A program made the translations under genes and the position numbers. A stretch of DNA of 64,000 nucleotides from Steroidobacteraceae bacterium. Its GTDB lineage: Bacteria; Pseudomonadota; Gammaproteobacteria; Steroidobacterales; Steroidobacteraceae. Under the pieces are notes generated by a model. The model made no database searches and was not told where the DNA came from. It saw only the letters and a list, made by a program, of their open reading frames with translations. Each line of letters begins with the position of its first letter. Within the stretch, counting starts at the first letter, position 1. The stretch spans positions 36,727 to 100,726 of the forward strand of contig JBILMF010000001.1 of assembly GCA_044375655.1 (NCBI GenBank). The letters run 5' to 3'. Positions 3 through 15,135 of the stretch are shown here, in pieces.

Positions 3-1274
3 CGCAGCGGTAATCGTTCCGGCGCAATCACGCAGCTCGCCGAAGCGCGCCGCCTGCTGCTCTCCCTTGGCGCGCAGAACCCTGAAAATGTAGTCGACGC
101 TGCCGAACTCGTGCGCACCAACTGGCTCTATGGCGAGGTGCTGCGCAATGCGGGGCAGACAACCGAGGCGCTGCCTCTGCTGCGCGAGGCCGTGGTGATC
201 GCCGATGGCATCCTTGCGCGCAATCCCGCCCACCGACCGGTGCTGCGTGCCAAGGCCACGGCACTGAGCCAGCTCTCGCAAGTGGAAGCCGACCGGCTGC
301 GATACGCGGCTGCACTCGACATCGCCAGAGAGGCGACGCGTATCAACGAATCGATCTCGACGCTGGAGCCCAAAGAATCACGCAACAACCTGCGCGTCAC
401 AAGGGGATACGAGGCCACGGCACTGTCTGAACTCGGTCGCGTGGCCGAAGCGGCCAAGGCGTCCGCAGCAGCCATCGAATTCCGCGCGGGCGAGTCGATA
501 GGCGGGTTCGCGTTGTTCAACATGGCGCGCGGCTTGAGCGAGCGGGCTGTCATCGCCGCAATCGAGGGCAAGGACGACGACGCCAGATCTCTTCTTGCAC
601 GCGCCAGGGACGCCGCCGCGGAGCATGCCAAGGTCAACCCGAACAAAATCGATAACGGCTTGTTGAGGGCGGGTTATTCGCTGACGCTTGCGCAGATCCA
701 GCTGCTGCGGCGCGATACAGCGGGTGTCGAGGCGGCAATGGCGGAGCCGATCGCGGCAGTCGATGCGTTGCGGCAAGACGATCCAGCCAGCAACCAGCAG
801 TCTTTCGGCTTGCTGACCTCGGCGCTCGCAACGGCAGCTGAGGCTGCGGCGTTGCAAGGCGCCCATGCGCGGGCGGAGCAGCACGCCCGTGCGGAGCTGC
901 AGGAATGGCGTCGCGACAAGAATCCTTCGCTCTTCGACCAGCGCGCCGCCCACGGCGCGCGCGTCCGTCTCGCGCTGGCGCTTGCCCGACAGGGCAAACT
1001 CGCCGAAGCGAATGCCACGCTGCGGCCGGTACTCGACTTCTTCGCGCTGCCGGCGGTCCGCGCCAGCGACTCCGTGTTGCTCAACGCCGAGCATGCGCGG
1101 GCGCTGCTCGCCGCGGCGCTCGCCAATCCGTCACGGCGCAGCGAACTGCTCGCCGAGTCGAAGCGCCGCTTCGACTCGATGCCGCTGGCCGTGCGACGAC
1201 TCGGCAACCTCGCGCTGACCAGCGAAGAGATCGAGCGGGAGATTCGCCGCGGTCCGACAGCCACGAGGAACTGA
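3..1274 (+). CDS. All-alpha TPR-like repeat protein, 5'-truncated by the window edge
   Basis: The frame of track ORF 111..1274 stays open back to nt 3, so the GTG at 111 is probably internal. The sequence is Ala/Leu/Arg-rich helical repeat with no TM segment. Stop TGA 1272-1274 overlaps the ATG at 1274 of the next gene (TGATG). Confidence 0.6.
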   Translation, partial: RSGNRSGAITQLAEARRLLLSLGAQNPENVVDAAELVRTNWLYGEVLRNAGQTTEALPLLREAVVIADGILARNPAHRPVLRAKATALSQLSQVEADRLRYAAALDIAREATRINESISTLEPKESRNNLRVTRGYEATALSELGRVAEAAKASAAAIEFRAGESIGGFALFNMARGLSERAVIAAIEGKDDDARSLLARARDAAAEHAKVNPNKIDNGLLRAGYSLTLAQIQLLRRDTAGVEAAMAEPIAAVDALRQDDPASNQQSFGLLTSALATAAEAAALQGAHARAEQHARAELQEWRRDKNPSLFDQRAAHGARVRLALALARQGKLAEANATLRPVLDFFALPAVRASDSVLLNAEHARALLAAALANPSRRSELLAESKRRFDSMPLAVRRLGNLALTSEEIEREIRRGPTATRN

Positions 1275-3544
1275 TGCCCGACATCTTCCTCTCCTATTCG
1301 CGTGACGATCAGGCGCGGGCGAAGCTCTTCGCCGAGGCCTTTGCGCGCGAGGGTTTCGAGGTGTGGTGGGACGTCGGCCTGCGGGCCGGGGAGGCCTACG
1401 ACGCGGTCACCGAGCAGGCGCTGCGCGATGCCAAAGCCGTGGTCGTGCTCTGGTCACGGCGCTCGGTAGCGAGCCGCTGGGTCCGTGCCGAAGCCACCAT
1501 CGCGCTGCGCAGCAATACTTTGGTGCCGGTGACCATCGAGCCCTGCGAGCGACCGATCATGTTCGAGCTCACGCATACCGCGGAGCTCACTCACTGGACG
1601 GGTGATGCGGCAGACCCCGCCTTCCGCAGTTTCATCGACGGTCTGCGTGGTTTCGTCGCACACGGCACAGCCACGAAGGCAACGACGTCAGCGGCAGCCA
1701 GCGGCGGCGATAACGTGTCGAGTTCGAGGTTGGCCGCAGGTCTCAAAGGTCTGTCGCGGCGACAGGTACGCCTGCCAATTTTGGTCGCGCTGATCGGCGC
1801 GGTCGGTCTCGCCGCGCTCGGCTTTGCGATCTCGCGGACGCTGCAACCGACCACCGGGAGCGCCACCACTCGCGTCGCACAGGTCGACATCAACCTACCC
1901 GCCGGCTATGTGATCGGCCCAGGCCTGCTCGAGCCGGTGGCGATCTCCCACGACGGCACCCGCCTCGCCTTCGTCGCCCTCAAGGACGACAAGTCGGCGC
2001 TCTTCGTACGCGCGCTCGACGAACCCGACGCCAAGCGACTCGACGGCACCGACGGCGCGGACGCGCCGTTCTTCTCGCCCGACGATCGCTGGATCGGGTT
2101 CTTCGCCGGCGGCAAGTTGCGCAAAGTACCGGTCGGTGGGGGTGCCGCGCAGGTACTGGCCGACGCCAACTTCCCCCGCGGCGGCGACTGGAGCGATGAC
2201 GGCTACATCTATTTCGCACCGACCAACTCCGGCAGCATCTGGCGCATCCCGGAGGCCGGCGGCACACCGACCGAGGTCACCCAGCTCGACGCCGGCAAGG
2301 GCGAGGTCTCGCATCGTTGGCCGCACCGCATCCGCGGTACCGACACCCTGCTCTTCTCAGCCTGGACGGGACCGGGCGATGACGAGGCTCGGCTAGCGGT
2401 GCAGTCGGTCGGGACGGCGGGGCACCGCTGGCTCGTCGAGGGCAACCGACCGCGCTATGACGCCCGTGCCGAAGTTCTGGCGTACCGGTACGGCAGCCAG
2501 TTTCTCACCGTGCCGTGGAATCCGTCGCAAGCGGATTTCGGCAAAGCGGCTCCGACGCAGGCGGCAGTTCAGCCTACCGACGGCGGGCGCAACGAGGGCA
2601 CAGGCAACTTTGCGTTCGCCGAGAACGGCACGCTCGTCTATCTGCGCACCGCCGAATCCCTGAGTGCCGCCCAGTTGAGCTGGGTCGACCGCGCGGGCAA
2701 GTCCACGCCCCTGCCGCTGCCACAACGCAAGTACGAGAACGTGGCGGTGTCACCCGACGGGTCCCGGGCTGTCTTGCAGATTCGCGAGGGCACGACCCGG
2801 CTGTGGGTCTACGATTTCGTACGCAGCACACTAACCCCGTTGCCCACCGGACCGGGCTCCAGCCAGGCACCGGTATGGAGCGCCGACAGCAGGCATATCT
2901 TTTATCGCGGTACGCGGCAGGGAACACGCAACCTCTACCGTATCGCTGCTGACGGCTCCGGCGAGGAAGAGCGGCTGACCTCAAAGCCTGGTGTCGTCCA
3001 GACCCCCATCTCGGTATCTAAAGATGGTCAAATCCTTCTCTACAACGAAAATGGGCCGACAGAACGGTTTGAAGCAGGTGCGTGGATGCTGCCGCTCGCG
3101 GCCAATCAGCAAGCGCGTCGACTGTTCCCGGCAGCGGTCGATGCCGCCAATGCCCATCTGTCACCCGATGGTCGTTGGGTGGCCTACGAAGCGAGGGTGG
3201 CTTCGCGGGCGGAAATCTTTGTCGCCCCGTTTGGTGGTGATGGCGAGCGACGGCTCATCTCGACCGATGGCGGCGAGCAGCCACTCTGGTCACGCGACGG
3301 TCGCGAGCTGTTCTTCAATTCGCCGCGAGGCCTGATGGTCGTCGACATCGGAGTAGCCGGGAAATTGGCCCCGAGCTCCCCGCGACTCCTGCTGGCCGGC
3401 CCGTTCACCATCCGCCAGGTCAATAACAACACCATGTACGGCATCGCGCCCGACGGCAGCCGCTTCCTGCGTATCCAGTCGGTGGCGCAGAACCAGAACA
3501 TCCGGGACATCGAACTGGTCTTCAACTGGCTCGAGGCACGCTGA
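1274..3544 (+). CDS. Membrane-anchored TIR protein A: TIR domain, single TM, periplasmic TolB/PD40-like beta-propeller
   Basis: In-frame ATG at 1274 inside track ORF 905..3544. The N-terminus MPDIFLSYSRDDQ...AVVVLWS...SRWVRAE carries TIR_2-type motifs. One hydrophobic helix (LPILVALIGAVGLAALGFAI) follows an SRRQVR cluster. The C-terminal ~550 aa has repeated PD40-like motifs: FFSPDDRWIGF, VSPDGSRAV, WSADSRHIFY, LSPDGRWVAY, WSRDGRELFF. Confidence 0.85.
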   Translation: MPDIFLSYSRDDQARAKLFAEAFAREGFEVWWDVGLRAGEAYDAVTEQALRDAKAVVVLWSRRSVASRWVRAEATIALRSNTLVPVTIEPCERPIMFELTHTAELTHWTGDAADPAFRSFIDGLRGFVAHGTATKATTSAAASGGDNVSSSRLAAGLKGLSRRQVRLPILVALIGAVGLAALGFAISRTLQPTTGSATTRVAQVDINLPAGYVIGPGLLEPVAISHDGTRLAFVALKDDKSALFVRALDEPDAKRLDGTDGADAPFFSPDDRWIGFFAGGKLRKVPVGGGAAQVLADANFPRGGDWSDDGYIYFAPTNSGSIWRIPEAGGTPTEVTQLDAGKGEVSHRWPHRIRGTDTLLFSAWTGPGDDEARLAVQSVGTAGHRWLVEGNRPRYDARAEVLAYRYGSQFLTVPWNPSQADFGKAAPTQAAVQPTDGGRNEGTGNFAFAENGTLVYLRTAESLSAAQLSWVDRAGKSTPLPLPQRKYENVAVSPDGSRAVLQIREGTTRLWVYDFVRSTLTPLPTGPGSSQAPVWSADSRHIFYRGTRQGTRNLYRIAADGSGEEERLTSKPGVVQTPISVSKDGQILLYNENGPTERFEAGAWMLPLAANQQARRLFPAAVDAANAHLSPDGRWVAYEARVASRAEIFVAPFGGDGERRLISTDGGEQPLWSRDGRELFFNSPRGLMVVDIGVAGKLAPSSPRLLLAGPFTIRQVNNNTMYGIAPDGSRFLRIQSVAQNQNIRDIELVFNWLEAR

Positions 3545-3548
3545 TGTT

Positions 3549-3577
3549 TTGACATCTGATGCGCTGAAAAATAACAT
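3549..3577 (+). promoter_or_regulatory. Sigma70-type promoter of vapBC with overlapping inverted repeat; predicts a leaderless or near-leaderless transcript
   Basis: TTGACA at 3549-3554, 17-nt spacer, TAACAT at 3572-3577. The vapB ATG at 3586 lies only 8 nt after the -10 box and has no SD. Inverted repeat TGATGCG (3557-3563) / CGCATCA (3580-3586) brackets the -10 box. Confidence 0.45.
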
Positions 3578-3585
3578 CACGCATC

Positions 3586-3873
3586 ATGCGCACGACGATT
3601 GATATCGACGACCCCATCCTCAAGAAACTCAAGGCTATCCAGGCGCGCGACGGTCGCTCCCTCGGTCGACTGGTGTCAGACCTCCTCGCGCAGGCGCTCG
3701 CCAGCAATGTGAAAGAGGTCGCGCCGCAGTACTTCGTGTGGGCTACCAGCCCCGGGCCGCTGCGGGTAGACCTGGCCGACAAAGATGCCGTTTATGCGGC
3801 GCTCGATGAGACGCAAGACGATCCCCGCGACAGCGCGCGCGACGACGCCCCACTGAAGCCGCCGCGCGCATGA
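3586..3873 (+). CDS. vapB: Type II antitoxin, VapB family (MRTTIDIDD-type)
   Basis: The N-terminus MRTTIDIDDPILKKLKAIQARDG is typical of VapB/Rv0623-like antitoxins. It is small (95 aa), and its stop overlaps the start of a PIN gene (ATGA at 3870-3873). Confidence 0.7.
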   Translation: MRTTIDIDDPILKKLKAIQARDGRSLGRLVSDLLAQALASNVKEVAPQYFVWATSPGPLRVDLADKDAVYAALDETQDDPRDSARDDAPLKPPRA

Positions 3874-4304
3874 GCTTTGCAATCGACGTCAATCTCCTCG
3901 TCTACGCCTCCGCGAAAGGCGCCCCGCAGCATGCGGCAGCTGATGCCTTTCTGCGCGACTGTGTGCGCGGCCCGGAGGTGTTTTATGTCGCGTGGCTGAG
4001 TCTCATGAGCTATGTACGTCTCGTGACCCATCCAAAGATTCTGCGCAACCCGCTCACCTCCGCGCAGGCGCAGCGCAACATCGAAGCGCTGCTCCGCGTG
4101 CCTCACTGCCGGACGCTCACGGAGCAGGAGGGATTCTGGTCGGTGTATCTCGAGTGCACGCAGGGTCAGCCGGTCCGCGGCAATGACGTACCCGATACCC
4201 ACCTCGCGGCGATCCTCAAGCAGAACGGCGTGACGCGGCTCTACACCGCCGATCGCGACTTCCGCCGCTTCGATTTCCTGAAGGTCATCGATCCGATCGG
4301 CTAA
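3870..4304 (+). CDS. vapC: Type II toxin, PIN-domain ribonuclease VapC
   Basis: Acidic PIN residues sit in IDVNLLVYA, NDVPDTHLAAI and YTADRDFRRF. It is 144 aa and translationally coupled to vapB. Confidence 0.8.
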   Translation: MSFAIDVNLLVYASAKGAPQHAAADAFLRDCVRGPEVFYVAWLSLMSYVRLVTHPKILRNPLTSAQAQRNIEALLRVPHCRTLTEQEGFWSVYLECTQGQPVRGNDVPDTHLAAILKQNGVTRLYTADRDFRRFDFLKVIDPIG

Positions 4305-4345: not shown

Positions 4346-6373
4346 TCAGTCGGGTTTGCGCACCAACTGCTCGTCGGCCAGCCCTACTGAGCGCAGGAAG
4401 GTGGCCCAGCGTGGGTGGGTATACAAGGGACGGAAGAGATAGTTGATCTTCATCCAACCGATACCCGGGTCGCGCACGTCGCGCATTGTCTCGACCTGGA
4501 TCATGGCGCCGTCGAAGTCCCCCGCAGCGGCGAGCAGCGCGCCGAGATAGGCAGGGTAGTCGCCCAGTTTCTCGAGATTGGCGCTTTTCGATTTTGTTTC
4601 CGAGATGATCTCGCGCAGTCGGCGCTGGTCGCCGCGACCTGCCGCAACGAGTCCCTGGACGAACAGTCTCGTGAGCAGGTCGGGCTCATCGAGGCCGAAC
4701 TGCTCCGCTTCGTCGAGCCGACCGAGCTCTACGAGCACGAGCCCCATGAAGCCTCGGTACCGCTGCCCCTGCGGCGAAAGCTCGAGCGCACGACGGAACC
4801 GGGTTTGCGCATCGATAAACTGATCGCTGAAGCGATAGATGAGTCCCAGGTCGAACTGCGTGGCCGGGTTGAGCGGATCGAGTCCCAGCGCTCGTCCAGC
4901 GAGATCCAGAGCCTCCGCCTTGCGACCGATCCCGACCTTGAGCACGGCAGTCGAGACGAGCACGTCCGTGTCGCTCGGCCGCTGCGCGAGGGCGCGATCG
5001 AAGGCCCGCTCGGCCTCGAGCCACTTCCAGTCCGCGGTTCGCAACATCCAGCCGTGAGCGACCAGCACCTCGGGGCTGTCGGGCTCCGCAGCCAGCGCCG
5101 GTGCGAGCGCCGCCTTCGCGGCCGCCCACGCATCCCTCGGCACCATGCCGCCCCAGCGGCCGAGCTGGACATAGGCCCGCGCCTGCTGGACGCGAGCGGG
5201 TACGAAGTCAGGATCGCGTTCGAGTGCACGCTCGAAGAGCGTGAGCGACTGCTTCAGGTTGTCGATCCCTGCGCGGCTCGCGAGCGCGCGGCCCTCGAGG
5301 TAAAGCCGGAACGCTTCGGGCTCTACCTGCCGGGCGGTAGCGGTCGCCGCCTGCGTGAGCTGCGGCGAGATATTCCGGGCGACAAGTCCCGCGATCTCGT
5401 CCTGTACCGCAAAGATATCCTTGAGATCTCGGGTAAAGCTGTCGCTCCATACCTGGAAGCCGTCGGTCGCCTGCACGAGCTGCACGCTGATACGCACCTT
5501 GTCGTCCGAGCGGCGCACGCTGCCCTCGACGATGTAGGCGACGCCCAGCTGACGGGCGATCTCAGGGATTGGCACCTCCTTGCCCTTGAAGGAAAAGGCC
5601 GAAGTCCTGGCCGTGACCTTGAGATTCGGGATCCTCGCCAGAACATTGATCAGCTCCTCGCTGATCCCTTCGGAGAAGAACTCGTTATCGGTCTCGTCCG
5701 AAAGATTGGCGAAGGCGAGCACGGCGACCGAGTTGTTGGTGATCGCCCGCTGCGCTGAAGCGGTCGACGTCGGCGAGGAAGATACCGTGGGCGATGATGA
5801 TCGCCAGCCCATCACACCCACCGCAGTGGCGAGTAGTGCGAGTACGCCGACGACTGCGGCGATGAGGGTACGACGCGAGAGGCCGGCGCCCGGTCCGGAA
5901 GTGGGGGGTGCCGATGCAGGTGCCGGAAACGCCTTGGGGGCCATGCTGGCCGCAGTCGTCGCGGTTCCGGTCGCGGACTTCTCGCGCGCGACGAAGCCGC
6001 GCAGGTCCTCGATGAAGCTGCGGAACGCCGGGTCTGTCGCATCGCCCGTCCAGTGCGTGAGCTCCGCGGTATGCGTGAGCTCAAACATGATCGGCCGCTC
6101 GCAGGGCTCGATGCTCACGGGCACGAGCGTGTTGCTGCGCAGCGCCAGCGTTGCCTCGGCCCGCACCCAGCGGCTCGTCACCGAGCGCTGCGACCAGAGC
6201 ACGACCACGGCCTTCGCGTCGCGCAGCGCCTGCTCGGTGACCGCGTCGTACGCCTCCCCGGCACGCAGACCGACATCCCACCAGACCTCGAACCCCTCGC
6301 GCGCAAAGGCCTCGGCGAAGAGCTTCGCCCGCGCCTGATCGTCACGCGAATAAGAGAGGAAGATGTCGGGCAT
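4346..6373 (-). CDS. Membrane-anchored TIR protein B: TIR domain, single TM, TolB-N/FlgO-like module, TPR repeats
   Basis: I chose the ATG at 6373 because it matches the start of paralog A; the TTG at 6421 would overlap the upstream gene. The TIR region differs from protein A at about 7 of the first ~131 residues. TM helix LIAAVVGVLALLATAVGVMGW follows LSRRT. Next comes SVAVLAFANLSD...YIVEGSVRR...VRISVQLV, then several TPR-like repeats (ALERDPDFVPARVQQARAYVQLGRW, ALGLDPLNPATQFDLGLIY, ALELSPQGQRYRGFMGLVLVELGR). Confidence 0.85.
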   Translation of the reverse strand: MPDIFLSYSRDDQARAKLFAEAFAREGFEVWWDVGLRAGEAYDAVTEQALRDAKAVVVLWSQRSVTSRWVRAEATLALRSNTLVPVSIEPCERPIMFELTHTAELTHWTGDATDPAFRSFIEDLRGFVAREKSATGTATTAASMAPKAFPAPASAPPTSGPGAGLSRRTLIAAVVGVLALLATAVGVMGWRSSSPTVSSSPTSTASAQRAITNNSVAVLAFANLSDETDNEFFSEGISEELINVLARIPNLKVTARTSAFSFKGKEVPIPEIARQLGVAYIVEGSVRRSDDKVRISVQLVQATDGFQVWSDSFTRDLKDIFAVQDEIAGLVARNISPQLTQAATATARQVEPEAFRLYLEGRALASRAGIDNLKQSLTLFERALERDPDFVPARVQQARAYVQLGRWGGMVPRDAWAAAKAALAPALAAEPDSPEVLVAHGWMLRTADWKWLEAERAFDRALAQRPSDTDVLVSTAVLKVGIGRKAEALDLAGRALGLDPLNPATQFDLGLIYRFSDQFIDAQTRFRRALELSPQGQRYRGFMGLVLVELGRLDEAEQFGLDEPDLLTRLFVQGLVAAGRGDQRRLREIISETKSKSANLEKLGDYPAYLGALLAAAGDFDGAMIQVETMRDVRDPGIGWMKINYLFRPLYTHPRWATFLRSVGLADEQLVRKPD

Positions 6374-6384
6374 ACGTCGTCTGC

Positions 6385-8712
6385 TCAATCGTCTTTGGGT
6401 TGCTCGAGCAATGTCGGCCAATTGGTCACGAGGCGGAAGCCGAAGGTCGAGGACGGGATAGTCGGGACATTGAGCAGCAGGCGCTCGCCGTCCGCCGTAA
6501 CGTCTTCAAAGATCGGTCGGTCCGTCTCGGGTTGTTCCGGCAGGCGGAAGAGGAGTGTCGGCGCGGGAGGTCGGAAATCGGCGTCCTCGGCGACCTGTAC
6601 CGACATCAGATCGCCACTCGGAGCGGCAAACAGCAGTTCGCGGCCGCCACGCGTCCAGCGCGGTCGGAACCCGCCAGCGCTCGACACCTGCCACTGCTGG
6701 GCGGCGCCTGAGGTCGGCCGGACGTAGACCTCGCGATTGCCGGATTCGTCCGACACGTAAGCAACCCAACGGCCGTCCGGAGAGACATCGACGTGGTCCT
6801 GAGAGCCTGCCGCCTTCAGGATGATCGTCGGGCTGGGTTTTGGCGCGGCGAGATCGATCCGCATGATGTCGTAGTCGCTGCCCGGAAACTGTTCGGCGTA
6901 GAACAGAGTACGGCCGTCCGCGAGGACACGCCCCGGATCCTTCCAGCCGCCAGACGAATGGATCACCTGCATGTCCGCACCGTCATCCAGCGACTTGATG
7001 CAGAGATCGCCCACATCCTCGATGCGACATCCGAACACAATCCGTTTCGAGTCGTTGAGCCACGCGGGCGAATTGTATCCGCGGGCATCACGGGACAACC
7101 GCAGGCGTCGCCCTTCGCGAACGTCAGTTAACCACAGGCTTGATTCTCCGTAGAACTCGCCGACGACGGTAGCGATCTTGCTGCCGTCCGGCGAGAGCCG
7201 TGGCCAAAAATACCGGTCCACCGGACCCACGCTCCCCTGAAGGTTGCCGCGGCGGTCCACCCACAGCAGTCGGGATTCGCGCTCCAGGATCGAACTCGGC
7301 AGGAACAGCAAGGCACCCGAATCGGAGGCCGAGAAACCCATGAACCCTCGCGCCGGGTACCCGGCGATCTGGCCGACCGGAACGGGCATGGGCTCCCCGA
7401 CGATTTCGAGTCGATCCATGTCGAGACGTACCGCGAGCAGGTCCGCCTTGCGCCCGAAGAGCAGGTAACCGGGGTCGACGTACTGGGGATTGGACGCGCC
7501 GCTGAGCAGCAGACGCGGCGCATCACCCTGCAGATTGGCCAACATGAGACGCGCCGTTTCGGGCGTGTCCATCGATCCCGAAACCATCGCCAGAAAGACA
7601 AAATGCTGTCCATCGGGCAGGAACGCAGGCCAGCGGTAGGAATCCGGCGCCTTGGCACGCGCCACTTCGCGCGTTGGCCCCCCGGAGGCGGACACCGCGT
7701 GCAAGCCGGAGGCGATATCGCGCGAAAACAGGATCACATCGTCGCGGTTCCACGTGCCCCCGCGCCCCTGCGGCGCATCGGCCAGCACCTGCGCTGCGCT
7801 GCCGCGCAAATCCAGCTTCTTGAGCTTGCCGTCCGCGAAGAAACCGACCTGCAGGCCGTCGGGTGACCAGAACGGGTAGTAGCCACCCGTTGTTCCCGGC
7901 AATGCGCGCGGCGTCGCGGAGGATAAATCGCGCACGAACAACTGGCGCTCGCCGCTTCTGGTCCGGGCTGAGAACACGGCCTTGCGTCCATCCGGCGACA
8001 GGGCCGCGCCGAGTTCGAACGAACGAAGCAGCGTTGCATCCGCCGGCGGATCGAGGCTCGCGATGATGGGTTCCCGGAGTGGCGGATTACCCGGTCGCCA
8101 ACCGGTGAGCAGCGCTGTGAGCGCTCCGACCGCCAGCAGCGCGCAGCCCGTGGCGACAGCCCAAGCCACGCGCTCACGGCGCGAGCTGAGGGTGCGCAGT
8201 TTGGGTTTCAGCGCGGCGGGCGGTTCGGTCTTTGTCGTCGCGACCGCGCCGTCCTCGGCGGGTAGGGCGGCGATGGCCCGGGCCAACTCCTCGACCCGGT
8301 CCTCGATCCGGCCGCTGAAGCCGTCCGTCCAGTGATGCCTCGCGAGATAGAGTTCGAGCGAGCGGCCGGGCTGCACATCCTCGACCCGAAAGGTCAGGAT
8401 CGGCTTGCCGAGCGTGAAGGCGCGGTTTACCTCGTTCTTGACGAACGGCGCCTTGTTCGCGGCCGAGGAAAGAACGAGCAGAAAGACCGAGGTCGAGTCG
8501 ATGGCGTCGAGGATTGCCTCGTCCCACACTTTGCCGGGCACCACATCGCGCGGACCGATCCAGCAGGGCAGGCCGCGCGCCTCCAGCAGCGCACAGACTT
8601 CCATCGCGAGCGCGTGGTCGTTGTTCGAGTGGGAGATGAAAATGCGGGCCGGTTGTCGGACGTCGCTCAAGGAGCCCCCATCACTTTGCTTGCCGGAGTA
8701 TCTTGCGGACAT
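6385..8712 (-). CDS. Membrane-anchored TIR protein C: divergent TIR domain, single TM, TolB/PD40-like beta-propeller
   Basis: TIR_2 motifs: RIFISHSNNDH, VWDEAILDAI, VFLLVLSS, PFVKNEV. TM helix VAWAVATGCALLAVGALTALLTGW follows SSRRER. PD40-like motifs: LSPDGRKAVF, FWSPDGLQVGFF, LSPDGSKIA, VSPDGRWVAY, WTRGGRELLF. The stop lies 11 nt before the start of gene B. Confidence 0.85.
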   Translation of the reverse strand: MSARYSGKQSDGGSLSDVRQPARIFISHSNNDHALAMEVCALLEARGLPCWIGPRDVVPGKVWDEAILDAIDSTSVFLLVLSSAANKAPFVKNEVNRAFTLGKPILTFRVEDVQPGRSLELYLARHHWTDGFSGRIEDRVEELARAIAALPAEDGAVATTKTEPPAALKPKLRTLSSRRERVAWAVATGCALLAVGALTALLTGWRPGNPPLREPIIASLDPPADATLLRSFELGAALSPDGRKAVFSARTRSGERQLFVRDLSSATPRALPGTTGGYYPFWSPDGLQVGFFADGKLKKLDLRGSAAQVLADAPQGRGGTWNRDDVILFSRDIASGLHAVSASGGPTREVARAKAPDSYRWPAFLPDGQHFVFLAMVSGSMDTPETARLMLANLQGDAPRLLLSGASNPQYVDPGYLLFGRKADLLAVRLDMDRLEIVGEPMPVPVGQIAGYPARGFMGFSASDSGALLFLPSSILERESRLLWVDRRGNLQGSVGPVDRYFWPRLSPDGSKIATVVGEFYGESSLWLTDVREGRRLRLSRDARGYNSPAWLNDSKRIVFGCRIEDVGDLCIKSLDDGADMQVIHSSGGWKDPGRVLADGRTLFYAEQFPGSDYDIMRIDLAAPKPSPTIILKAAGSQDHVDVSPDGRWVAYVSDESGNREVYVRPTSGAAQQWQVSSAGGFRPRWTRGGRELLFAAPSGDLMSVQVAEDADFRPPAPTLLFRLPEQPETDRPIFEDVTADGERLLLNVPTIPSSTFGFRLVTNWPTLLEQPKDD

Positions 8713-8798: not shown

Positions 8799-10826
8799 TC
8801 AAGCCGGCACGGTGATCTGCTTCGCCTCGAACACCGCCTGCCAGCTTTCGATCTCGCTCACCACAATGTCGTCGGCGGCGTGCGCGAGCTCCGCGACCGA
8901 GCCGTAATCGAGCGCGGAGTCCGGCGCGCGCAGGATGAGCGCAATACGCGCATCCACCGCCTCGAGCTTGCCCGCCGTCACCCGCGAGATCGCCGCAAAG
9001 CGCTCGAAATCGCCGAAGAAACGGATGCCGGACAGCGCGCCGCCGAAGGTCGGCAGCGCCACGCCGAGAAAAGTGAATACTTTGGTCAGGCTCTTGAAGA
9101 GCTCCTGATCGAGGAGCCCGACCCAGCTGGTCGCTGCCAGAACGAGGTACAGCGCCGCCGCGGCCACCGCGAGCTGGAAGGAGCGCTCGGACAGGTGGTC
9201 GAGATTGTGGTGCACGGCGGTCAGGCGTCGCGCCTTCTGTGCGTGGTAGCCGCACTGCGAGGAAACATGCGGTGCGATCAACTCGACCAGTACGGCGCGC
9301 AGGTATTCCGGGGTGATGCGTACGTGGGGCAGACCGATTTCGCGTAGCGCATGGCGTGCATAGTGTTCGGGCCAGGCGGTGTCGGATCCACGCGGCCAGC
9401 GGCCGGTGGCGCGTGCTGCGCCGAGCGACAGCAGCAACGGTGAGTGGCGCAGGTATTCGGCGACGCGGCGTGTCTCGAACCAGCGGCCATGCCAGCGGCG
9501 TCCCTGGCCAACGAAGGTGATGGCAAGGATGGCGCCGAGCAGCACGAGTTCGAAGGCCGCGAACGGCCACTTCCAGGAACTGTCCACGACCGGCAGGTAG
9601 GCGACGCCGCTGATCACCGCCAACGCCGACAACACGAAGTTGACGACCATGCTGCCACGATAGGTGTCGGATAAATGCGCAGCGATGCCGTCTGACCAGG
9701 CAAAGCGACCGAGTACACCCTCGACCACGCGCTCGGCAAAGGGTCGGTCGGCCGACGGCAGGTTCGCGAGCGCCGAGGCCACGCCTGCGCCTGACCCGGT
9801 GGCGATCTCGTCGGGCGTCTCATAGGTCTGGGTCAGCGAGCGGCGCGGACGCGGACGCTTCTGCCCGTCGAAGCTGCGCTCTACCCAGCGGTACGCATGC
9901 CACAGCGGATTGCTGCGCGCGCGCCAGTTGCCGGCCGAGATCGCCGCGACCCCGAGATCGCGGGCGGGCGGCACAGCCGCCACGCCGACAACGCCCGGCA
10001 GCAGCGACGACAGCAAGATCTGTCGCAGCAGCGTTTCGCGGTCGGCGAGCGCGGAGTCCTCGTGGAGCAGTGCAAGCGACTCCGGTGCACCGAGGATGCG
10101 CCACGCATCGGGTACGGCGGGGTCGATCCAGAGTACGGGCGTACCCATGTCGAGGGCGGCGGCAACGGTATGGCCCGTGCCGCCGACGAGGCTGGTGCGG
10201 GCACCGTCCCAGACAGCGATCACCAGATCGGAATGCTCGATCATCACCCGCCCGGCGAGCGCCACGCGCACCGAGCTGTCGGCGCGAAACACATCCGAGC
10301 GGCCCACGTCTTCCGGGCGATCGTGCATGGCGAGGAGGTGTTCGGTGATCGCCGCATCGGCGTCGGCGAGCTCGAAGACCTGCGCCTGAGTGGTGATGGA
10401 TCGCAGCGCCGCAGCACGGCGCTGCACGTCAGCGTCGGCCGGTTCACGGCCGGCGAGCAGCGCGCGGGCGTCCTCAGCCGTGCGCGGGCCGGCGTTGATG
10501 GCGCAGTTGAGCGACTGTCCGAACGGCAGCAGAGCGATGAGATCCCAGCCGCGACCGAGGGCCGCATGCGCCGCCATCTGATCGGTGCCATCCGCCATGA
10601 GCGACTGCATGCGGATCGGCGCAAAGGGCTCGCCGAAGGGTGGGGTCAAGGAGCCGACGATGGCGACGATCTCGTCGAGCACGCGACCCATGGCGGACTC
10701 GATGGCCGCCGCACGCGGTGCGTAGGACGGATGGTCGGCTCGATGTCCCGTAACGCCGAGGGACAGACGCACGCGCGGCGCGCGCGGCGGAGTGACAGGT
10801 CGGGCGGCGTCGGTCGGTTCGCGCAC
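8799..10826 (-). CDS. SLOG (DprA/LOG-like Rossmann) domain fused to two SLATT/DUF4231-like 2TM modules
   Basis: N-terminal Rossmann-like pattern: LSLGVTGHR, SLMADGTDQMAAHAAL (compare DprA GxxxGID..AH..AL), DLVIAVWDG...LVGGTGHTVAAAL (LOG/DprA GGxG-type loop). Residues ~390-460 give TM (VVNFVLSALAVISGVAYLPVV), TM (WPFAAFELVLLGAILAITFVG), then RRWHGRWFETRRVAEYLR. Residues ~525-625 give GYHAQKARRL, then TM (FQLAVAAAALYLVLAATSWVGLL), TM (VFTFLGVALPTFGGALSGI) and an amphipathic helix. The GTG start is 9 nt after the eptA stop. Confidence 0.6.
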   Translation of the reverse strand: MREPTDAARPVTPPRAPRVRLSLGVTGHRADHPSYAPRAAAIESAMGRVLDEIVAIVGSLTPPFGEPFAPIRMQSLMADGTDQMAAHAALGRGWDLIALLPFGQSLNCAINAGPRTAEDARALLAGREPADADVQRRAAALRSITTQAQVFELADADAAITEHLLAMHDRPEDVGRSDVFRADSSVRVALAGRVMIEHSDLVIAVWDGARTSLVGGTGHTVAAALDMGTPVLWIDPAVPDAWRILGAPESLALLHEDSALADRETLLRQILLSSLLPGVVGVAAVPPARDLGVAAISAGNWRARSNPLWHAYRWVERSFDGQKRPRPRRSLTQTYETPDEIATGSGAGVASALANLPSADRPFAERVVEGVLGRFAWSDGIAAHLSDTYRGSMVVNFVLSALAVISGVAYLPVVDSSWKWPFAAFELVLLGAILAITFVGQGRRWHGRWFETRRVAEYLRHSPLLLSLGAARATGRWPRGSDTAWPEHYARHALREIGLPHVRITPEYLRAVLVELIAPHVSSQCGYHAQKARRLTAVHHNLDHLSERSFQLAVAAAALYLVLAATSWVGLLDQELFKSLTKVFTFLGVALPTFGGALSGIRFFGDFERFAAISRVTAGKLEAVDARIALILRAPDSALDYGSVAELAHAADDIVVSEIESWQAVFEAKQITVPA

Positions 10827-10835
10827 CGGCGAAGT

Positions 10836-12518
10836 TTAGCCGAGATCCCGTGGCCGGCATTCCGTAAACATGTCGAGCGCGCGATTGCGTGCGGCTGTAT
10901 CGACCTGCAGCAGGCCGAGTACGGTGTGGAAGATGTTGTCGTGCGACAGTTCGCGCTTGCGGCCGCGCTCGACGCAGGCCATGTCGAGGCCCATGCGGCG
11001 CGCGTACCCCTCCGAGGCCCAGAAGACCATCGGCACCCGGGTCTGCTGGTCCGGGGCGATCGCGTACGGCAGCGCGTGCAGGAAGACGCCGCTCTCGCCC
11101 AGCGACTCGCCGTGATCGGAGACGTAGAGCAGCGCCGTGTCCGCACGGTCGGCGATTGCCGCCAGCGAGCGGATCGCACCGGCAAGCAGGTGATCGGTAT
11201 AAAGGATGGTGTCGTCGTAAGCGTTGACGATTTCCTCGACCTGGCACTTGGAGAAATCCGTCTCGCGGCAGACCGGGGTGAACTGCTCGAACTGCCGTGG
11301 ATAGCGCAGGTGATAGCCGGGTCCGTGGCTGCCGAGCATGTGCAGCACGGCCAGGCGTCGACCCGCAGGCTGCGCCAGAGATTTTTCGAAGAGGTCGAAC
11401 ATCGCGCCGTCCATGCAGGGGCCATCGCCCACGCAAAGCTGCGGATAGTCCTCGCGCGCGGCCCGGATCTCGGGAAGGCCGCGACAGACGCCCTTGCAGT
11501 GGGTGTTGTTGCCGAACCATTGGACCGTGAAGCCCGCCTTGCCCACGATATCGACGAGGTTGTCGCGGGCCTTGGCCTTCTCCGCCGAGAAACCGGCGCG
11601 GCCGAGATCCGAGAACATGCAGGGGACGGAGATGGCGGTGGAGGTGCCGCAGGACGACACGGCAGTGAAGTTGATCAGACCCGGCGTCGCGGCAAGTTGC
11701 GGCGTGGTCTGCCGCCGGTACCCGTCCAGCCCAAAGTCTGCTGCGCGTGCGGTTTCGCCAACCACCAGTACGACGATGAGGGGACGCACGGCGTCCGCGG
11801 CCTGCCACAGCTTGCCGGGTCGTGCATCGCTGCCGATCGGTTCATAAGGCAAGTCGGGTTTCGTCACCTCGGCGACATAGCTGCCGGCACCCGCTAGGTA
11901 GTTGACCGGCACGAGCAGGTGGCGCAGTTCACGGTTGTTGCGCAGCGTCGCAGCATGGTCCTGGTAGTAGAGCGCGGCGATCGCCCCGATGCCGAGTGCC
12001 GTGAGCCCCAGTGCGAGGCCACGGTGCGCCAACTCAACTCGCCACGTCGCGAGGACGAGACGCGTGCGCATCACCAGCACGGCGGGCAGCACGCCGAGCA
12101 GGCCGACGTAGAGGATCAGACTGAGATTGATGAGCTCCCCCGCCTCGAGGCCGTCGGTCTCGAAGACATTGCGGATCATCACCCGGTCGATGCGCACGCC
12201 GTAGGCCTGCACGAAGTAGGACGCGAGGGCGGCGAGCAGCAACACGACCGCCAGCAGCGGGCGGGCGAGCGGCCGGATCAGCGTGAACACCAGCAGAAAC
12301 AGGTTGATCAGCAGAAAGGCGAGCAGCGCGAACGAGATCAGGTAGAAGACATCGTCCGCCGAAGCGGGCGGCCGGATCTCGAACACCCGCGACCAGAAAG
12401 GCAGGTTGAGTGCGAGCAGGCACCAGAGCGACGCGCAGGCCGTGAGCGCCGTGGTGCTGATCTGCCATCGGGGGAGTTGCAGTTTCATGGAGATATCGTG
12501 CCCGGAGTGCGGCCGCAT
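10836..12518 (-). CDS. eptA: Phosphoethanolamine-lipid A transferase (EptA/MCR family)
   Basis: Five N-terminal TM helices plus a sulfatase-like domain with VVGETARAADFGLDGY, SSCGTSTAISVPCMFS (nucleophilic Thr context as in EptA/MCR-1), HMLGSHGPGYHLRYP and YVSDHGESLGE. An alternative internal start ATG at 12488 (MKLQLPRW) is possible; GC3 of the intervening 10 codons favours 12518. Confidence 0.9.
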   Translation of the reverse strand: MRPHSGHDISMKLQLPRWQISTTALTACASLWCLLALNLPFWSRVFEIRPPASADDVFYLISFALLAFLLINLFLLVFTLIRPLARPLLAVVLLLAALASYFVQAYGVRIDRVMIRNVFETDGLEAGELINLSLILYVGLLGVLPAVLVMRTRLVLATWRVELAHRGLALGLTALGIGAIAALYYQDHAATLRNNRELRHLLVPVNYLAGAGSYVAEVTKPDLPYEPIGSDARPGKLWQAADAVRPLIVVLVVGETARAADFGLDGYRRQTTPQLAATPGLINFTAVSSCGTSTAISVPCMFSDLGRAGFSAEKAKARDNLVDIVGKAGFTVQWFGNNTHCKGVCRGLPEIRAAREDYPQLCVGDGPCMDGAMFDLFEKSLAQPAGRRLAVLHMLGSHGPGYHLRYPRQFEQFTPVCRETDFSKCQVEEIVNAYDDTILYTDHLLAGAIRSLAAIADRADTALLYVSDHGESLGESGVFLHALPYAIAPDQQTRVPMVFWASEGYARRMGLDMACVERGRKRELSHDNIFHTVLGLLQVDTAARNRALDMFTECRPRDLG

Positions 12519-12526
12519 GCGGCCGT

Positions 12527-14239
12527 TCAGAAGCTGCGCTTGGTCTCGACGGTCACCTGCATGCTCTTCAGCGACTTGTCACCGCCTACCGGAAAAGCGA
12601 GGTCGATATGCAGCACGTTGCCGAGCGCCGAGCGGCTGTTGCCGAGGCGCAAGCCGACACCGACGTCACCGAGCACCTCCTGCGTGCCGCTCGCAAACGG
12701 GTCACGACCCCAGGTGCCACCGACGTCGAGGAAGGCGGCGCCGCCGACATGCACCAGCCGGAAGGGATACCAGTCGGTGAAGGCCCGCTGTTCGAGGGTC
12801 AGCAGCCAGCGACCCTGCCCGCCCTGATAGCGCAGCGGATAACCGCGCAACCCCGTATCGCCGCCCAGCATCAGCTCGCGATCGGCATCCAGCTTCTCAC
12901 CGCTGTCGACCGCCAGACTGGCAAAGAAAAGCCGCCTCTCGGACTGCCGGTGATAGTAGCGCGCCGAGGCGCTGAGCAGCGTATCGGCGAACGCACCGTG
13001 CTCATGGCGGCCGTCCAGCGAGGCGGCGAGCAGCAGGCTGCGCTTGCCGCTCAATTCGTAGCCCTTGCTGAGTTGTGAGGTGAAGATCACCGCGTTACGG
13101 TCGGCATCGAGACCCTTGGTCGAGTAGCCGATCCGTATGCCGGCGCGCCAGCCGTACTGGAAGTCCTCGGTGCGCTCGATCTGGTCGAGGTTGCGCAGCG
13201 CGCGAAAATCATCCTCCACGAACTCGACCGCCGCCCACGGATAGACCAGCTTGCGATCCGCAGGCGCCGCCGCGCGAAAGCGGCTGCCCGCCACCGGGTC
13301 GAACACCCGCTCGTCGTCCGTGAGACCGACCGACCAGCGTGTGACGAAGCGCCCCTGCAGGCCGCGCGACCAGCCGACCCAGGCGCTGCGGAAGCGGCGA
13401 TCGACGAGATACTCGGCAACCGGCTCGCCGCGGTCGTAGCGCGTGTCGATGCGATTCGTCTTGAACGAGGAAAAACCGCCCGCACGGCGGGTATCGAGGG
13501 CGTAGAAAGGCTGCTCGAGCAGCAGCCGCTTGGCGCCACCGTCGCTGAAGTCGGAGTGCTCGAGCTCGAGCGCCCACCAGGTGCTGCCGAGTTGGCGGTC
13601 GACATAGCGGAAGGAGGTGATGTCGCGATCGACTTCGTTCAGCTGCTTGAAGTTGAGCTGCGAGCCCTGCCCGAAAAGATTGAGCTCCTCGAGTTCGAAG
13701 CCTGAGGTGCTCTTGCCGCCCGAGCGGCCGAAAGAGATGCCGGGATTGAGCGTCCAGACATCACGCGTCACCACCTCGATGTCCACCACCCCGTCGACGT
13801 AGCGCACCGGACGCACTGCGGCATCGTAGAGATAGCGGGTATCGCGCAGCAGCCGCTCGCTCTCCTCGAGCAGTCGCCCCTTGTAGGGATCGCCCGCGCG
13901 GAACAGCAGCCGGTCGACGATGGTCGTTTCACGACTGTTGACGTGCAGGCGATTGGCCGTACGGAACAGCCAGGTGTTCTCATCTGGACGGCTGGTGTCG
14001 AAGACGTCGAGCGCACGGATGGTCACCGTGCCGATGCGTGCGCCCGCCGCCTCGAGTGTGGCGTCATCCGGTACCTCGGCCGGGCGTTTGCGTTCCACCG
14101 GGTCGGTACGGGCCGCCACCAGCGGCCTGCCAGCGGGGGGCTCGGCCGCAGACAGCCACGCGCAGAACAAAGCAACGCCTCCAAAGACTGTTACCGCGAC
14201 AAGTCGATCAAGCGGCTCTAGACATCGGCGATGGTTCAT
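12527..14239 (-). CDS. Omp85/BamA-family outer-membrane protein (POTRA plus beta-barrel)
   Basis: ATG at 14239 (MNHRRCL...) gives a signal peptide ending in WLSAAEP. A POTRA-like region (IGTVTIRALDVFD...) precedes long alternating beta-strand sequence that ends in the aromatic terminus VETKRSF. Confidence 0.8.
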   Translation of the reverse strand: MNHRRCLEPLDRLVAVTVFGGVALFCAWLSAAEPPAGRPLVAARTDPVERKRPAEVPDDATLEAAGARIGTVTIRALDVFDTSRPDENTWLFRTANRLHVNSRETTIVDRLLFRAGDPYKGRLLEESERLLRDTRYLYDAAVRPVRYVDGVVDIEVVTRDVWTLNPGISFGRSGGKSTSGFELEELNLFGQGSQLNFKQLNEVDRDITSFRYVDRQLGSTWWALELEHSDFSDGGAKRLLLEQPFYALDTRRAGGFSSFKTNRIDTRYDRGEPVAEYLVDRRFRSAWVGWSRGLQGRFVTRWSVGLTDDERVFDPVAGSRFRAAAPADRKLVYPWAAVEFVEDDFRALRNLDQIERTEDFQYGWRAGIRIGYSTKGLDADRNAVIFTSQLSKGYELSGKRSLLLAASLDGRHEHGAFADTLLSASARYYHRQSERRLFFASLAVDSGEKLDADRELMLGGDTGLRGYPLRYQGGQGRWLLTLEQRAFTDWYPFRLVHVGGAAFLDVGGTWGRDPFASGTQEVLGDVGVGLRLGNSRSALGNVLHIDLAFPVGGDKSLKSMQVTVETKRSF

Positions 14240-14610
14240 TCGGTGAACAGCAACGCGCCCGTCACCAGAGGCAGCGCCAGGTGGACACGCAGGAAACCGG
14301 GACTGAGGCGGCGGAGCGACAAGGTTGTGAGGTGGCTTGTGGCAAGGCTCCCGGGACGATCGGAGACGACCGAGGAGGCCCTGCGCGGCTTCAAGGAGAC
14401 CTTGAAATCCGTCGCAAGTTCCCGAAGTTATTGACGTTTCGGACAACCCCCGGGCGCAAGTGTGACGCAGGGCAGGTACGGTGGCCAGCCTTTACCCGCC
14501 GCGCGGCCTGCCGCATCATCCATGGCCCGCTCTACCTCGCGCCAGCGCACCGCACCCGATCCTGCCGACTGCGCACCCCGGGAACAGCGGCCATCCTCTG
14601 AGGGTCGACC

Positions 14611-15135
14611 ATGAAAAAACTGCTCGCGCTCGTTCTGTTCGCCATCGCAGCGCCGCTCGGCCTCGCCGCCGCCGAAGTCGGCAAGCCAGCGCCGGATTTC
14701 CGGCTGCAGGACCAGACCGGCGCGTGGCGCTCGCTGGCCGATTACCGGGGCAAGTGGGTAGTGCTCTATTTCTACCCCAAGGACAACACCCCGGGCTGCA
14801 CCACTCAGGCCTGCGAGTTCCGCGACGAGATCTTCGCCTTCCGCAGGGCCAACGCGGTGATCCTCGGCGTGAGCGTCGACAAGGTCGACTCCAAGGAAGC
14901 CTTCGCCAAGGAGCACAGCCTGCCGTTCCCGGTGCTGGCGGACGCCGATACCGCCACCACCCGCGCCTACGGCTCGCTCACCAGCTACCCGCAGTTCAAG
15001 CTCTTCAATATCGCCCGCCGCGACACTTTCATCATCGACCCCGAGGGTCGGGTGGCGAGGCGCTTCGACAACGTCAATCCCAACGGGCACTCGAAGATGG
15101 TGCTCGCCGAGCTGACCGCCCTGCAGGCCCGCTGA
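14611..15135 (+). CDS. bcp: Secreted peroxiredoxin, Bcp/PrxQ type
   Basis: Signal peptide MKKLLALVLFAIAAPLGLAAA; peroxidatic Cys motif YFYPKDNTPGCTTQACEF. Confidence 0.9.
   Translation: MKKLLALVLFAIAAPLGLAAAEVGKPAPDFRLQDQTGAWRSLADYRGKWVVLYFYPKDNTPGCTTQACEFRDEIFAFRRANAVILGVSVDKVDSKEAFAKEHSLPFPVLADADTATTRAYGSLTSYPQFKLFNIARRDTFIIDPEGRVARRFDNVNPNGHSKMVLAELTALQAR

Follow-up and report, generated by a model that had tools for sequence, protein, structure and literature searches.

The question raised by this locus is what is made by a 675-amino-acid (aa) open reading frame (ORF) that begins directly behind an eptA gene in a 64-kb stretch of DNA from a Steroidobacteraceae bacterium (the whole stretch that was analysed, hereafter the window). 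An earlier note on this DNA had read the product as a SLOG-like sensor fused to two SLATT-like two-transmembrane (2TM) modules, and had taken the tight junction with eptA as a sign of co-translation with an envelope-modifying enzyme. Our analysis indicated that the protein is most likely a membrane-damaging effector and not a partner of the lipid A-modifying enzyme, and we put at roughly 0.55 the probability that it is the membrane effector of a TIR-based, Thoeris-like signalling module. The target and its parts, with transmembrane (TM) segments called from hydropathy and an AlphaFold2 (AF2) model and no dedicated predictor, are as follows.

8799 to 10826, minus strand: target ORF, 675 aa, GTG start; SLOG-like domain, linker and two SLATT-like 2TM modules; putative TIR-signal-gated membrane effector.
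10002 to 10775 (aa 18-275), minus strand: SLOG-fold Rossmannoid, N-terminal and predicted to be cytoplasmic, placed by AF2, Foldseek and weak Pfam matches.
9747 to 10001 (aa 276-360), minus strand: linker region, predicted to be cytoplasmic, with conserved W301, S305, R313, E316 and F319 and a YETP motif.
9417 to 9746 (aa 361-470), minus strand: SLATT-like module 1, with TM1 at aa 393-411 (nt 9594-9650) and TM2 at aa 422-440 (nt 9507-9563).
8826 to 9311 (aa 506-667), minus strand: SLATT-like module 2, with TM3 at aa 554-572 (nt 9111-9167) and TM4 at aa 583-601 (nt 9024-9080).

The ORF and the motifs singled out in the earlier note were borne out. LSLGVTGHR occupies aa 21-29, SLMADGTDQMAAHAAL aa 75-90 and DLVIAVWDG...LVGGTGHTVAAALDMGTPVLWID aa 200-235, and the pattern W-x3-W-x3-R-x2-AE-x-LR was confirmed by residue (W445-x3-W449-x3-R453-x2-A456-E457-x-L459-R460) directly after the second TM helix. 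Among 95 full-length homologues (55-92% identity), these positions showed little or no variation. Many of the residues were kept down to 23% identity, including G24, G27, H28, R29, R72, G80, D82, P101 and F102 in the N-terminal part, D200, W206, D207, G208, G215, G216 and T217 further on, and W445, H446, R448, W449, R453, E457 and R460 in module 1. The full-length AF2 model, built on the 95-sequence alignment, reached a pLDDT of 91.2 and a pTM of 0.89 and was made up of four parts, namely an alpha/beta domain (aa 22-275), a partly ordered linker (disordered at aa 280-290), module 1 and module 2.

The observation is far beyond chance; the target belongs to a very large family. A profile search of 1.84 billion representative proteins returned 4901 representatives (at 50% identity) with E<=1e-3 and 935 with E<=1e-30, and the family held more than 1282 clusters at 90% identity. 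Among the matches listed, most were 600-680 aa long and aligned across both halves of the protein. Relatives were present in 395 of 185,579 species genomes, mainly those of Sphingomonadales, Caulobacterales, Hyphomonadaceae and Steroidobacteraceae, the closest (91% identity) being encoded by an Acidibacter metagenome-assembled genome (MAG; locus L001). All source names seen in the protein collection were "hypothetical protein", and none of the Thoeris models of NCBIfam or PADLOC matched the target. The suggestion that a tandem 2TM arrangement behind one sensor domain is unusual therefore did not stand, as the SLOG plus double-hairpin architecture is the norm of this large unnamed family and a "SLOG and 4TM" class already exists in the literature.

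The N-terminal part of the target had been compared in the earlier note to DprA- and LOG-type nucleotide-binding Rossmannoids, and its structure sustained the idea of a SLOG-like, sensor-type domain. Foldseek searches with the full-length model were dominated by the long helices, and the resulting ABC-transporter, OprM and ClyA/YaxA matches were non-significant and rejected; the domain was modelled separately to avoid this dominance and reached a pLDDT of 95. Against BFVD (viral predicted structures) the separate model gave 14 matches at E<=1e-3, the best at 7.8e-8 with a probability of 1.0 and target-normalised TM-scores of up to 0.82. The named matches were a YspA cpYpsA-related SLOG domain-containing protein, a DprA-like DNA processing chain A, DUF2493 and a Rossmann-fold nucleotide-binding protein. 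Against the PDB, all matches at a probability of at least 0.97 were SLOG-superfamily or DprA-like, among them DprA (3uqz, 4ljk), the LOG-like TM1055 (1rcu) and ShosA (8zva), with probabilities of 0.97-1.0. AF2 and Foldseek thus gave the three-layer alpha/beta Rossmannoid, the parallel sheet and the likeness to known members that mark the SLOG fold.

The motifs of this domain are GVTGHR (24-29), ADGTDQ (78-83), LPF (100-102), D200, WDG (206-208) and GGTGHT (215-220), with a helical insert at about aa 104-197. GVTGHR follows the strand 22-27 and GGTGHT precedes the helix 217-226; both loops are invariant or nearly so and, in the model, appear to sit where SLOG domains carry their nucleotide-contacting loops. 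Curated Pfam SLOG models returned scattered sub-threshold matches (best E 0.004), distributed over a few family members each (YAcAr/cpYpsA in 3-4, DprA in 1-2, Nuc_deoxyrib_tr in 2-5, LDcluster4 in 1 and YpsA in 1). PDB sequence searches, with the full-length profile and with a diverse N-terminal profile, yielded chance matches only, to antibody light chains and phosphofructokinase. As modelled, the domain folds like a SLOG domain and lies nearest to the YpsA/cpYpsA/DprA-like side of the superfamily; it is a divergent SLOG lineage missed by current Pfam models.

The C-terminal half of the protein carries the membrane part. SLATT was reportedly defined by Burroughs et al. in 2015 as the "SMODS and SLOG-associating 2TM effector domain". 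The SLATT/DUF4231 family (Pfam PF14015, PF18181 and others; NCBIfam NF033634 and NF033632) has a helix-TM-TM-amphipathic helix order and is SLOG-associated, as is the target, which differs in having two such units in tandem per chain and in scoring just below the cut-offs. Hydropathy placed two hairpins, at 393-411/422-440 and 554-572/583-601, and the AF2 model agreed, so that the paired-hairpin topology proposed in the earlier note was upheld; a TM hairpin flanked by predicted cytoplasmic helices, the topology of the SLATT/DUF4231 family, occurs twice. A topology in which the N-terminus is inside, all soluble parts are cytoplasmic and four helices cross the membrane is predicted because of the positive-inside distribution and the short loops between the TM segments.

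In the model of module 1, a 48-residue helix (361-408) leads into TM1 and is followed, after a short loop, by TM2 (416-443) and amphipathic helices (445-467), of which the one behind TM2 carries the invariant WHGRWFETRRVAEYLRH. This module matched Pfam DUF4231 over aa 398-461 (E 6e-5, 23.9 bits against a cut-off of 24.7) and NCBIfam SLATT_1 over aa 374-472 (E 1e-6). DUF4231 was matched in all 30 aligned members, its cut-off was exceeded in relatives of 23-30% identity (P0172 at 28.8, P0190 at 30.9, P0241 at 25.3 and P0179 at 24.8 bits), and a 26%-identical Caballeronia homologue bears the RefSeq name "DUF4231 domain-containing protein". Module 2 begins after a short connector with a 63-residue helix (506-568) that runs into TM3, followed by TM4 (574-605), an invariant GIRFFGDFERFAAIS and two helices (607-667). 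Its match to NCBIfam SLATT_4 over aa 543-640 had an E-value of 0.06 in the full protein and 0.003 for the isolated module. Of 30 diverse members, 22 had a module 2 match to NCBIfam SLATT_1 and 14 had one to SLATT_4, with a best E of 7e-6; Pfam SLATT_1 was matched in 8, every one of these scores lay under its cut-off, and any other family recurred in at most two members.

Both the topology and the independent SLATT matches therefore support the presence of two SLATT-like modules. The further step of treating the modules as duplicates of one SLATT unit is unproven: hhalign comparison of the two sub-alignments gave a probability of about 1% and a non-significant P of 0.045-0.048. The diverse alignment placed the two in register (helix-TM-TM-helix) over 95-133 columns; the closer alignment covered 12 columns only. 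For the window protein, the SLOG and SLATT assignment rests on structure and family-wide recurrence and not on curated thresholds.

The informative neighbours, overlooked in the earlier note, are the TIR-domain genes immediately downstream of the target; the window has three TIR genes within 7.5 kb.

6385 to 8712, minus strand: TIR-TM-PD40 beta-propeller protein, 775 aa; Pfam TIR_2 4e-19 and PD40 3e-20; FVKNE Glu motif.
4346 to 6421, minus strand: TIR-TM-(FlgO/CadC-like)-TPR protein, 691 aa; Pfam TIR_2 3e-20 and TPR families; WVRAE Glu motif.
1274 to 3544, plus strand: third TIR-TM-PD40 protein, 756 aa.

The first of these genes shares the strand of the target and lies 86 nt downstream of it; its product has a TIR domain at aa 24-143, a TM helix at 185-203 and a periplasmic, TolB-like propeller. 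The second product has its TIR domain at aa 20-124 and its TM helix at 186-204; the true start of this gene is likely the ATG at 6373 (MPDIF...), and its TIR type was 60-76% identical, by tblastn on loci, to the partners of target homologues elsewhere. The TIR domains of the plus-strand gene at 1274-3544 and the minus-strand gene at 4346-6421 shared 429 nt at 86% DNA identity, but the two proteins end in unrelated domains (a PD40 propeller and TPR, respectively). Domain swapping or gene conversion, with the TIR module as the fixed part, is suggested by this pattern. A TIR-profile search of all ORFs of the window, the sole internal control, matched only the three genes beside the target. Such an arrangement agrees with what is seen for both known groups of proteins: SLATT domains are fused to or encoded near SLOG, SMODS or TIR, and here SLOG fusion and adjacent TIR genes occur together, and a Thoeris effector has a TIR gene next to it, as does the target.

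Other ORFs lie among the TIR genes. A PIN-domain (VapC-like toxin) ORF at 3870-4304 on the plus strand matched Pfam PIN at 26.2 bits, above the cut-off, and a sigma-70-like promoter match was seen upstream of it at 3549-3577. At 111-1274 (plus strand), a 387-aa ORF that ends exactly at the start of the third TIR gene (1274) had no Pfam match and looked helical-repeat or TPR-like by eye.

The linkage to TIR genes extended well beyond the window. Among 80 genome loci of the close family, taken with up to 10 kb of flank and a TIR threshold of E<1e-10, a TIR ORF was found in the flanks of 52; of the 41 loci that had 5 kb or more of flank on each side, 29 carried one. Target and TIR gene were a median of 281 nt apart, with 33 pairs on the same strand and 19 on opposite strands; some loci carried two to five tandem TIR paralogues, and many of the TIR domains were 60-76% identical to those of the window. 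A second sample, retrieved with an 8-sequence alignment, covered 80 metagenome loci (L088-L167) of a subfamily about 25-30% identical to the target. Here a TIR ORF was present in 44 loci; of the 45 that extended 3 kb or more upstream, 32 had one. These counts, for which no formal background rate is available, are lower bounds on short contigs. One to five TIR genes thus stand beside the target in about two thirds of loci, in two subfamilies that are some 25-30% identical to each other.

In the distant subfamily, the main neighbour cluster was a protein of about 730 aa with TIR_2/ThsB_TIR and MalT-like TPR domains, and other neighbours were SIR2-TIR proteins, shorter TIR proteins and nSTAND1 NTPases. 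A homologue on a Caballeronia plasmid had TIR and nSTAND1-WD40 neighbours, P0085 had a TIR-TPR neighbour, a further distant member adjoined nSTAND1 and patatin genes, and at locus L083 a TIR-PG_binding_1 gene lay beside the homologue. Signs of a defence or mobile context were mixed: the window has its PIN toxin-like ORF, and distant members have nSTAND1, patatin, SIR2-TIR and transposase genes close by, but many loci were flanked by housekeeping genes. The window held no tRNA.

The partner TIR proteins share a catalytic motif and vary in their sensor parts. A W/F-x3-E motif was found in 70 of 71 partner TIRs and aligned with the same motif in published ThsB TIR sequences, so that the catalytic Glu appears, at the motif level, to be kept. 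By a rough heuristic, a TM-like segment followed the TIR domain in 34 partners and was lacking in 26, and a P-loop NTPase was recognised in 6; the attached parts included TM helices with periplasmic TPR or PD40 domains, cytoplasmic TPR and STAND NTPases. Extracytoplasmic sensing by partner TIRs would therefore be common, and is predicted for all three in the window, though it is non-universal.

Several further observations were made at these loci. Between the homologue and the TIR-PG_binding_1 gene of L083 lies a 774-aa protein with TrkA_N and RyR domains (L083:2098-4422, plus strand), possibly an extra channel-regulatory or ligand-binding component. Conserved ORFs of about 180-325 aa (L163:4974-5948, L136:242-805 and similar) lie on the same strand between TIR-TPR and SLOG-4TM genes of the distant subfamily; they form two clusters, in 11 and 7 loci, had no Pfam match in either and may be a third system component. 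In L081:7769-9727 and in TIR ORFs of L039, L010, L019, L022 and L053, the TM segment after the TIR domain is Gly/Ala-rich with RR(x)(F/L/V)L ahead of it, a motif that was seen in many partner TIRs and resembles an internally placed twin-arginine signal motif. In two Caulobacterales/Hyphomonadaceae loci, a protein of about 960-990 aa directly follows the target homologue (L012:5233-8115 and L013:2852-5830); it combines a long WD40 region with an N-terminal part of only weak likeness to the TIR profile (E 5e-6 and 2e-4).

On this evidence the target is best read as the putative effector of a Thoeris-like module, in which the TIR proteins would sense and generate the signal, the SLOG-fold domain would receive it and the two SLATT-type hairpins would be the output. 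The data show the folds, the topology, the gene linkage and the kept TIR motif; we infer signal production, binding, oligomerisation and membrane effect, as we do everything functional on this family. When the sensor part is triggered, the TIR domains would assemble and convert NAD+ to an ADP-ribose-derived nucleotide, for example an isomer of cyclic ADP-ribose (cADPR). The nucleotide would bind in the SLOG-like pocket, whose predicted lining consists of the invariant GxxGHR, R72, DGxDQ, D200, WDG and GGT motifs, and binding would cause the long helices that connect the cytoplasmic domain with the membrane to rearrange or oligomerise. The four-helix part could then open or breach the inner membrane, leading to depolarisation, growth arrest or cell death (abortive infection). 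Because each of the three TIR proteins of the window is anchored in the membrane and carries a periplasmic domain, the trigger here would be an extracytoplasmic or envelope event.

There are published precedents for this scheme. SLATT has been predicted to be a membrane-permeability effector regulated by ADP-ribose (ADPr) derivatives (PMC9503650). In type I Thoeris, the SLOG domain of ThsA binds 3'cADPR; TIR with SLATT is a validated type VII Thoeris with a canonical cADPR signal; and type III combines several TIRs with a SLOG effector (all 10.64898/2025.12.03.692087). The general kind, TIR with a SLOG and/or SLATT effector, is thus already known. In type VII (TIR ThsB and SLATT ThsH; Yirmiya et al. 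2025 preprint), as in the window, a TIR gene adjoins a SLATT-type 2TM membrane protein, and the predicted flow is from the TIR product to a membrane-breaching SLATT assembly. The target differs from type VII in adding an N-terminal SLOG-fold domain and a second SLATT-like hairpin, and in often having several TIR partners that bear large sensor domains (TM with periplasmic TPR/PD40, or STAND). With ThsA (SIR2-SLOG) and with type III it would share a SLOG domain that receives a TIR-made nucleotide and one effector served by one or several TIR genes, while its output is a 4TM SLATT-type membrane module and not the SIR2 domain of ThsA.

The closest described class is the "SLOG and 4TM" or "4TM SLOG" effector (Yirmiya et al. 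2025, Tables S1-S2), which by its stated architecture has a SLOG domain, four TM helices and an adjacent TIR and is a putative, unverified Thoeris effector (2025 preprint 10.64898/2025.12.03.692087). Examples are given from Streptomyces sp. GKU 895 and Ca. Nitrospira nitrosa COMA1 (IMG effectors 2862473379 and 2691454910; 10.64898/2025.12.03.692087). The class has few members, some five TIRs from a single TIR cluster (2691454909); the window TIRs were 19-25% identical to the four class TIRs compared and did not fall within that cluster. A search with the Nitrospira TIR found only relatives of 55-64% identity on short contigs, one of which was examined and had an uninformative neighbour, and a search with the Streptomyces TIR, as a route to the 4TM SLOG effectors, found no match. 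What is new here is the size and conservation of the unnamed family, the evidence for four TM helices as two SLATT-like units, the linkage in both subfamilies to a TIR domain that is highly conserved and carries interchangeable sensor domains, and the TIR partners that have a TM helix and periplasmic TPR, PD40 or peptidoglycan (PG)-binding domains.

Several points weigh against the reading of the target as a TIR-gated effector. Every SLOG and SLATT profile match of the window protein fell below the curated cut-offs, and no PADLOC model matched it. A catalytic role would likewise be compatible with the invariant His, Arg and Asp of the SLOG-like pocket. Two "SLOG and 4TM" systems, which are likened to the target by architecture, gave no defence in E. 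coli (10.64898/2025.12.03.692087). About 30% of the loci with full flanks had no TIR gene within 10 kb, and several Novosphingobium loci adjoin cysH/sulfite reductase genes in place of TIR. The neighbours are often housekeeping genes and not a defence island, and a TIR identity of 60-76% across classes is unusually conserved for defence genes.

A bolder form of the TIR-gated scheme, which we regard as less likely than not, sees the window as a bacterial "Toll-like receptor" pathway in which three membrane-anchored TIR proteins with differing periplasmic repeats (two PD40 propellers and one TPR) gate the SLOG-4TM channel. The TIR proteins would sense phage adsorption or injection, or envelope damage, and relay it by a cytoplasmic, TIR-made nucleotide. 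The likeness to animal Toll-like receptors is an analogy only: each TIR partner in the window joins a cytoplasmic TIR domain through one TM helix to an extracytoplasmic repeat domain, but the domain order is reversed, with the TIR N-terminal, and no homology is implied outside the TIR domain. Unlike their animal counterparts, the bacterial TIRs would be expected to process NAD+ as enzymes rather than to serve as scaffolds. If true, this would be the first Thoeris-like system with extracytoplasmic sensing and would provide a swappable-sensor array on one conserved TIR-effector pair.

The same membrane anchors could serve a purpose other than defence, and here the genes upstream of the target have to be considered.

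10836 to 12518, minus strand: EptA-type phosphoethanolamine-lipid A transferase; NCBIfam NF028537, 553 bits (cut-off 500).

Upstream of eptA, at 12527-14446 on the minus strand, a 639-aa ORF gave a weak Omp85-superfamily match (19.3 bits, below cut-off); along with eptA, the Acidibacter MAG has kept this ORF, at 80% identity. At 14611-15135 (plus strand), a 174-aa ORF with a PGCTTQACEF motif looked, by eye only, like a Bcp-type peroxiredoxin with a signal peptide.

In a non-immune reading, a TIR-made messenger would gate the SLOG-4TM protein as a regulated ion or solute channel in outside-in signalling, allowing adaptation to envelope stress without killing, and the membrane-anchored TIRs would use their TPR, PD40 or PG-binding domains to sense peptidoglycan, outer-membrane damage or Tol-Pal-like cues. 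A TM helix and periplasmic-type domains are present in all three TIR partners of the window, and a TM-like segment in about half of the partner TIRs elsewhere. One distant locus combines TIR-PG_binding_1 with the TrkA_N-RyR protein, housekeeping neighbours include KefB, DsbB and cysH, both partners are highly conserved, and in the window the target forms an apparent operon with the Omp85-like and eptA envelope genes, with no terminator between. However, this eptA/Omp85 neighbourhood is not conserved, and many partner TIRs either have no TM helix or are joined to a STAND NTPase, a domain typical of conflict systems. Distant members have nSTAND1, patatin, SIR2-TIR and transposase genes as neighbours, relatives are patchily distributed (in 395 of 185,579 species genomes), and the SLATT proteins characterised so far are cell-killing effectors. 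We consider signalling without killing unlikely.

Another rival holds that the SLOG-like domain is itself an enzyme, a membrane-tethered N-glycosidase or nucleotide processor that makes or degrades an ADP-ribose-derived molecule, likened to LOG, nucleoside 2-deoxyribosyltransferase or "CMP hydrolase", with the TIR proteins acting as NAD+-depleting effectors or as upstream suppliers of substrate. The invariant polar residues H28, R29, R72, D82, D200, D207 and H219 could form an active site, weak Pfam matches to Nuc_deoxyrib_tr were obtained, and the structural matches include the LOG-like TM1055. Some SLOG domains are catalytic or possibly generate ADPr signals (Aravind and colleagues, PMC9503650), and a "CMP hydrolase" effector occurs in type VIII Thoeris. 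The closest structures, however, are YpsA/cpYpsA- and DprA-like, a clade of cADPR sensing and DNA binding and not of LOG enzymes, and a domain fused to SLATT hairpins is what marks a ligand-gated membrane effector. The LOG motif PGGxGTxxE also has a final Glu, which the GGTGHT of the target lacks at that place. An enzymatic role for the domain is accordingly rather improbable.

The weakest reading, in which the target is an EptA partner such as a translationally coupled regulator or accessory of lipid A phosphoethanolamine modification, is effectively refuted because the adjacency is not conserved: the 9-nt gap (eptA stop TAA at 10836-10838, before the target GTG) is real, as the earlier note had said, and lies on a common strand with no terminator-like site in between, but eptA was missing from the flanks of 79 of 80 related loci and from the contexts of distant members, and at the sole eptA-flanked locus, that of the 91%-identical Acidibacter orthologue, it lies 5.5 kb off with DUF1838 and Peptidase_M30 genes intervening. 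The eptA gene is a neighbour only, outside the conserved module, and the tight junction should not be taken in annotation as a functional link.

If the target is indeed the effector of a TIR-based module, a function would be provided for about 900 or more clusters at 50% identity from 395 species genomes, mostly annotated as "hypothetical" and lacking a PADLOC model, and Thoeris-type signalling would be extended to a SLOG and double-SLATT effector so far listed as an unverified class. Such an effector assignment would be expected by specialists; the periplasm-facing TIR arrays are worth testing. To our knowledge, known Thoeris TIRs are cytoplasmic. The TM helices and periplasmic domains on about half of the partner TIRs raise the possibility that immune or stress sensing takes place at the envelope, and one conserved TIR domain joined to interchangeable sensors would offer a tractable system for studying how bacterial TIRs are activated.

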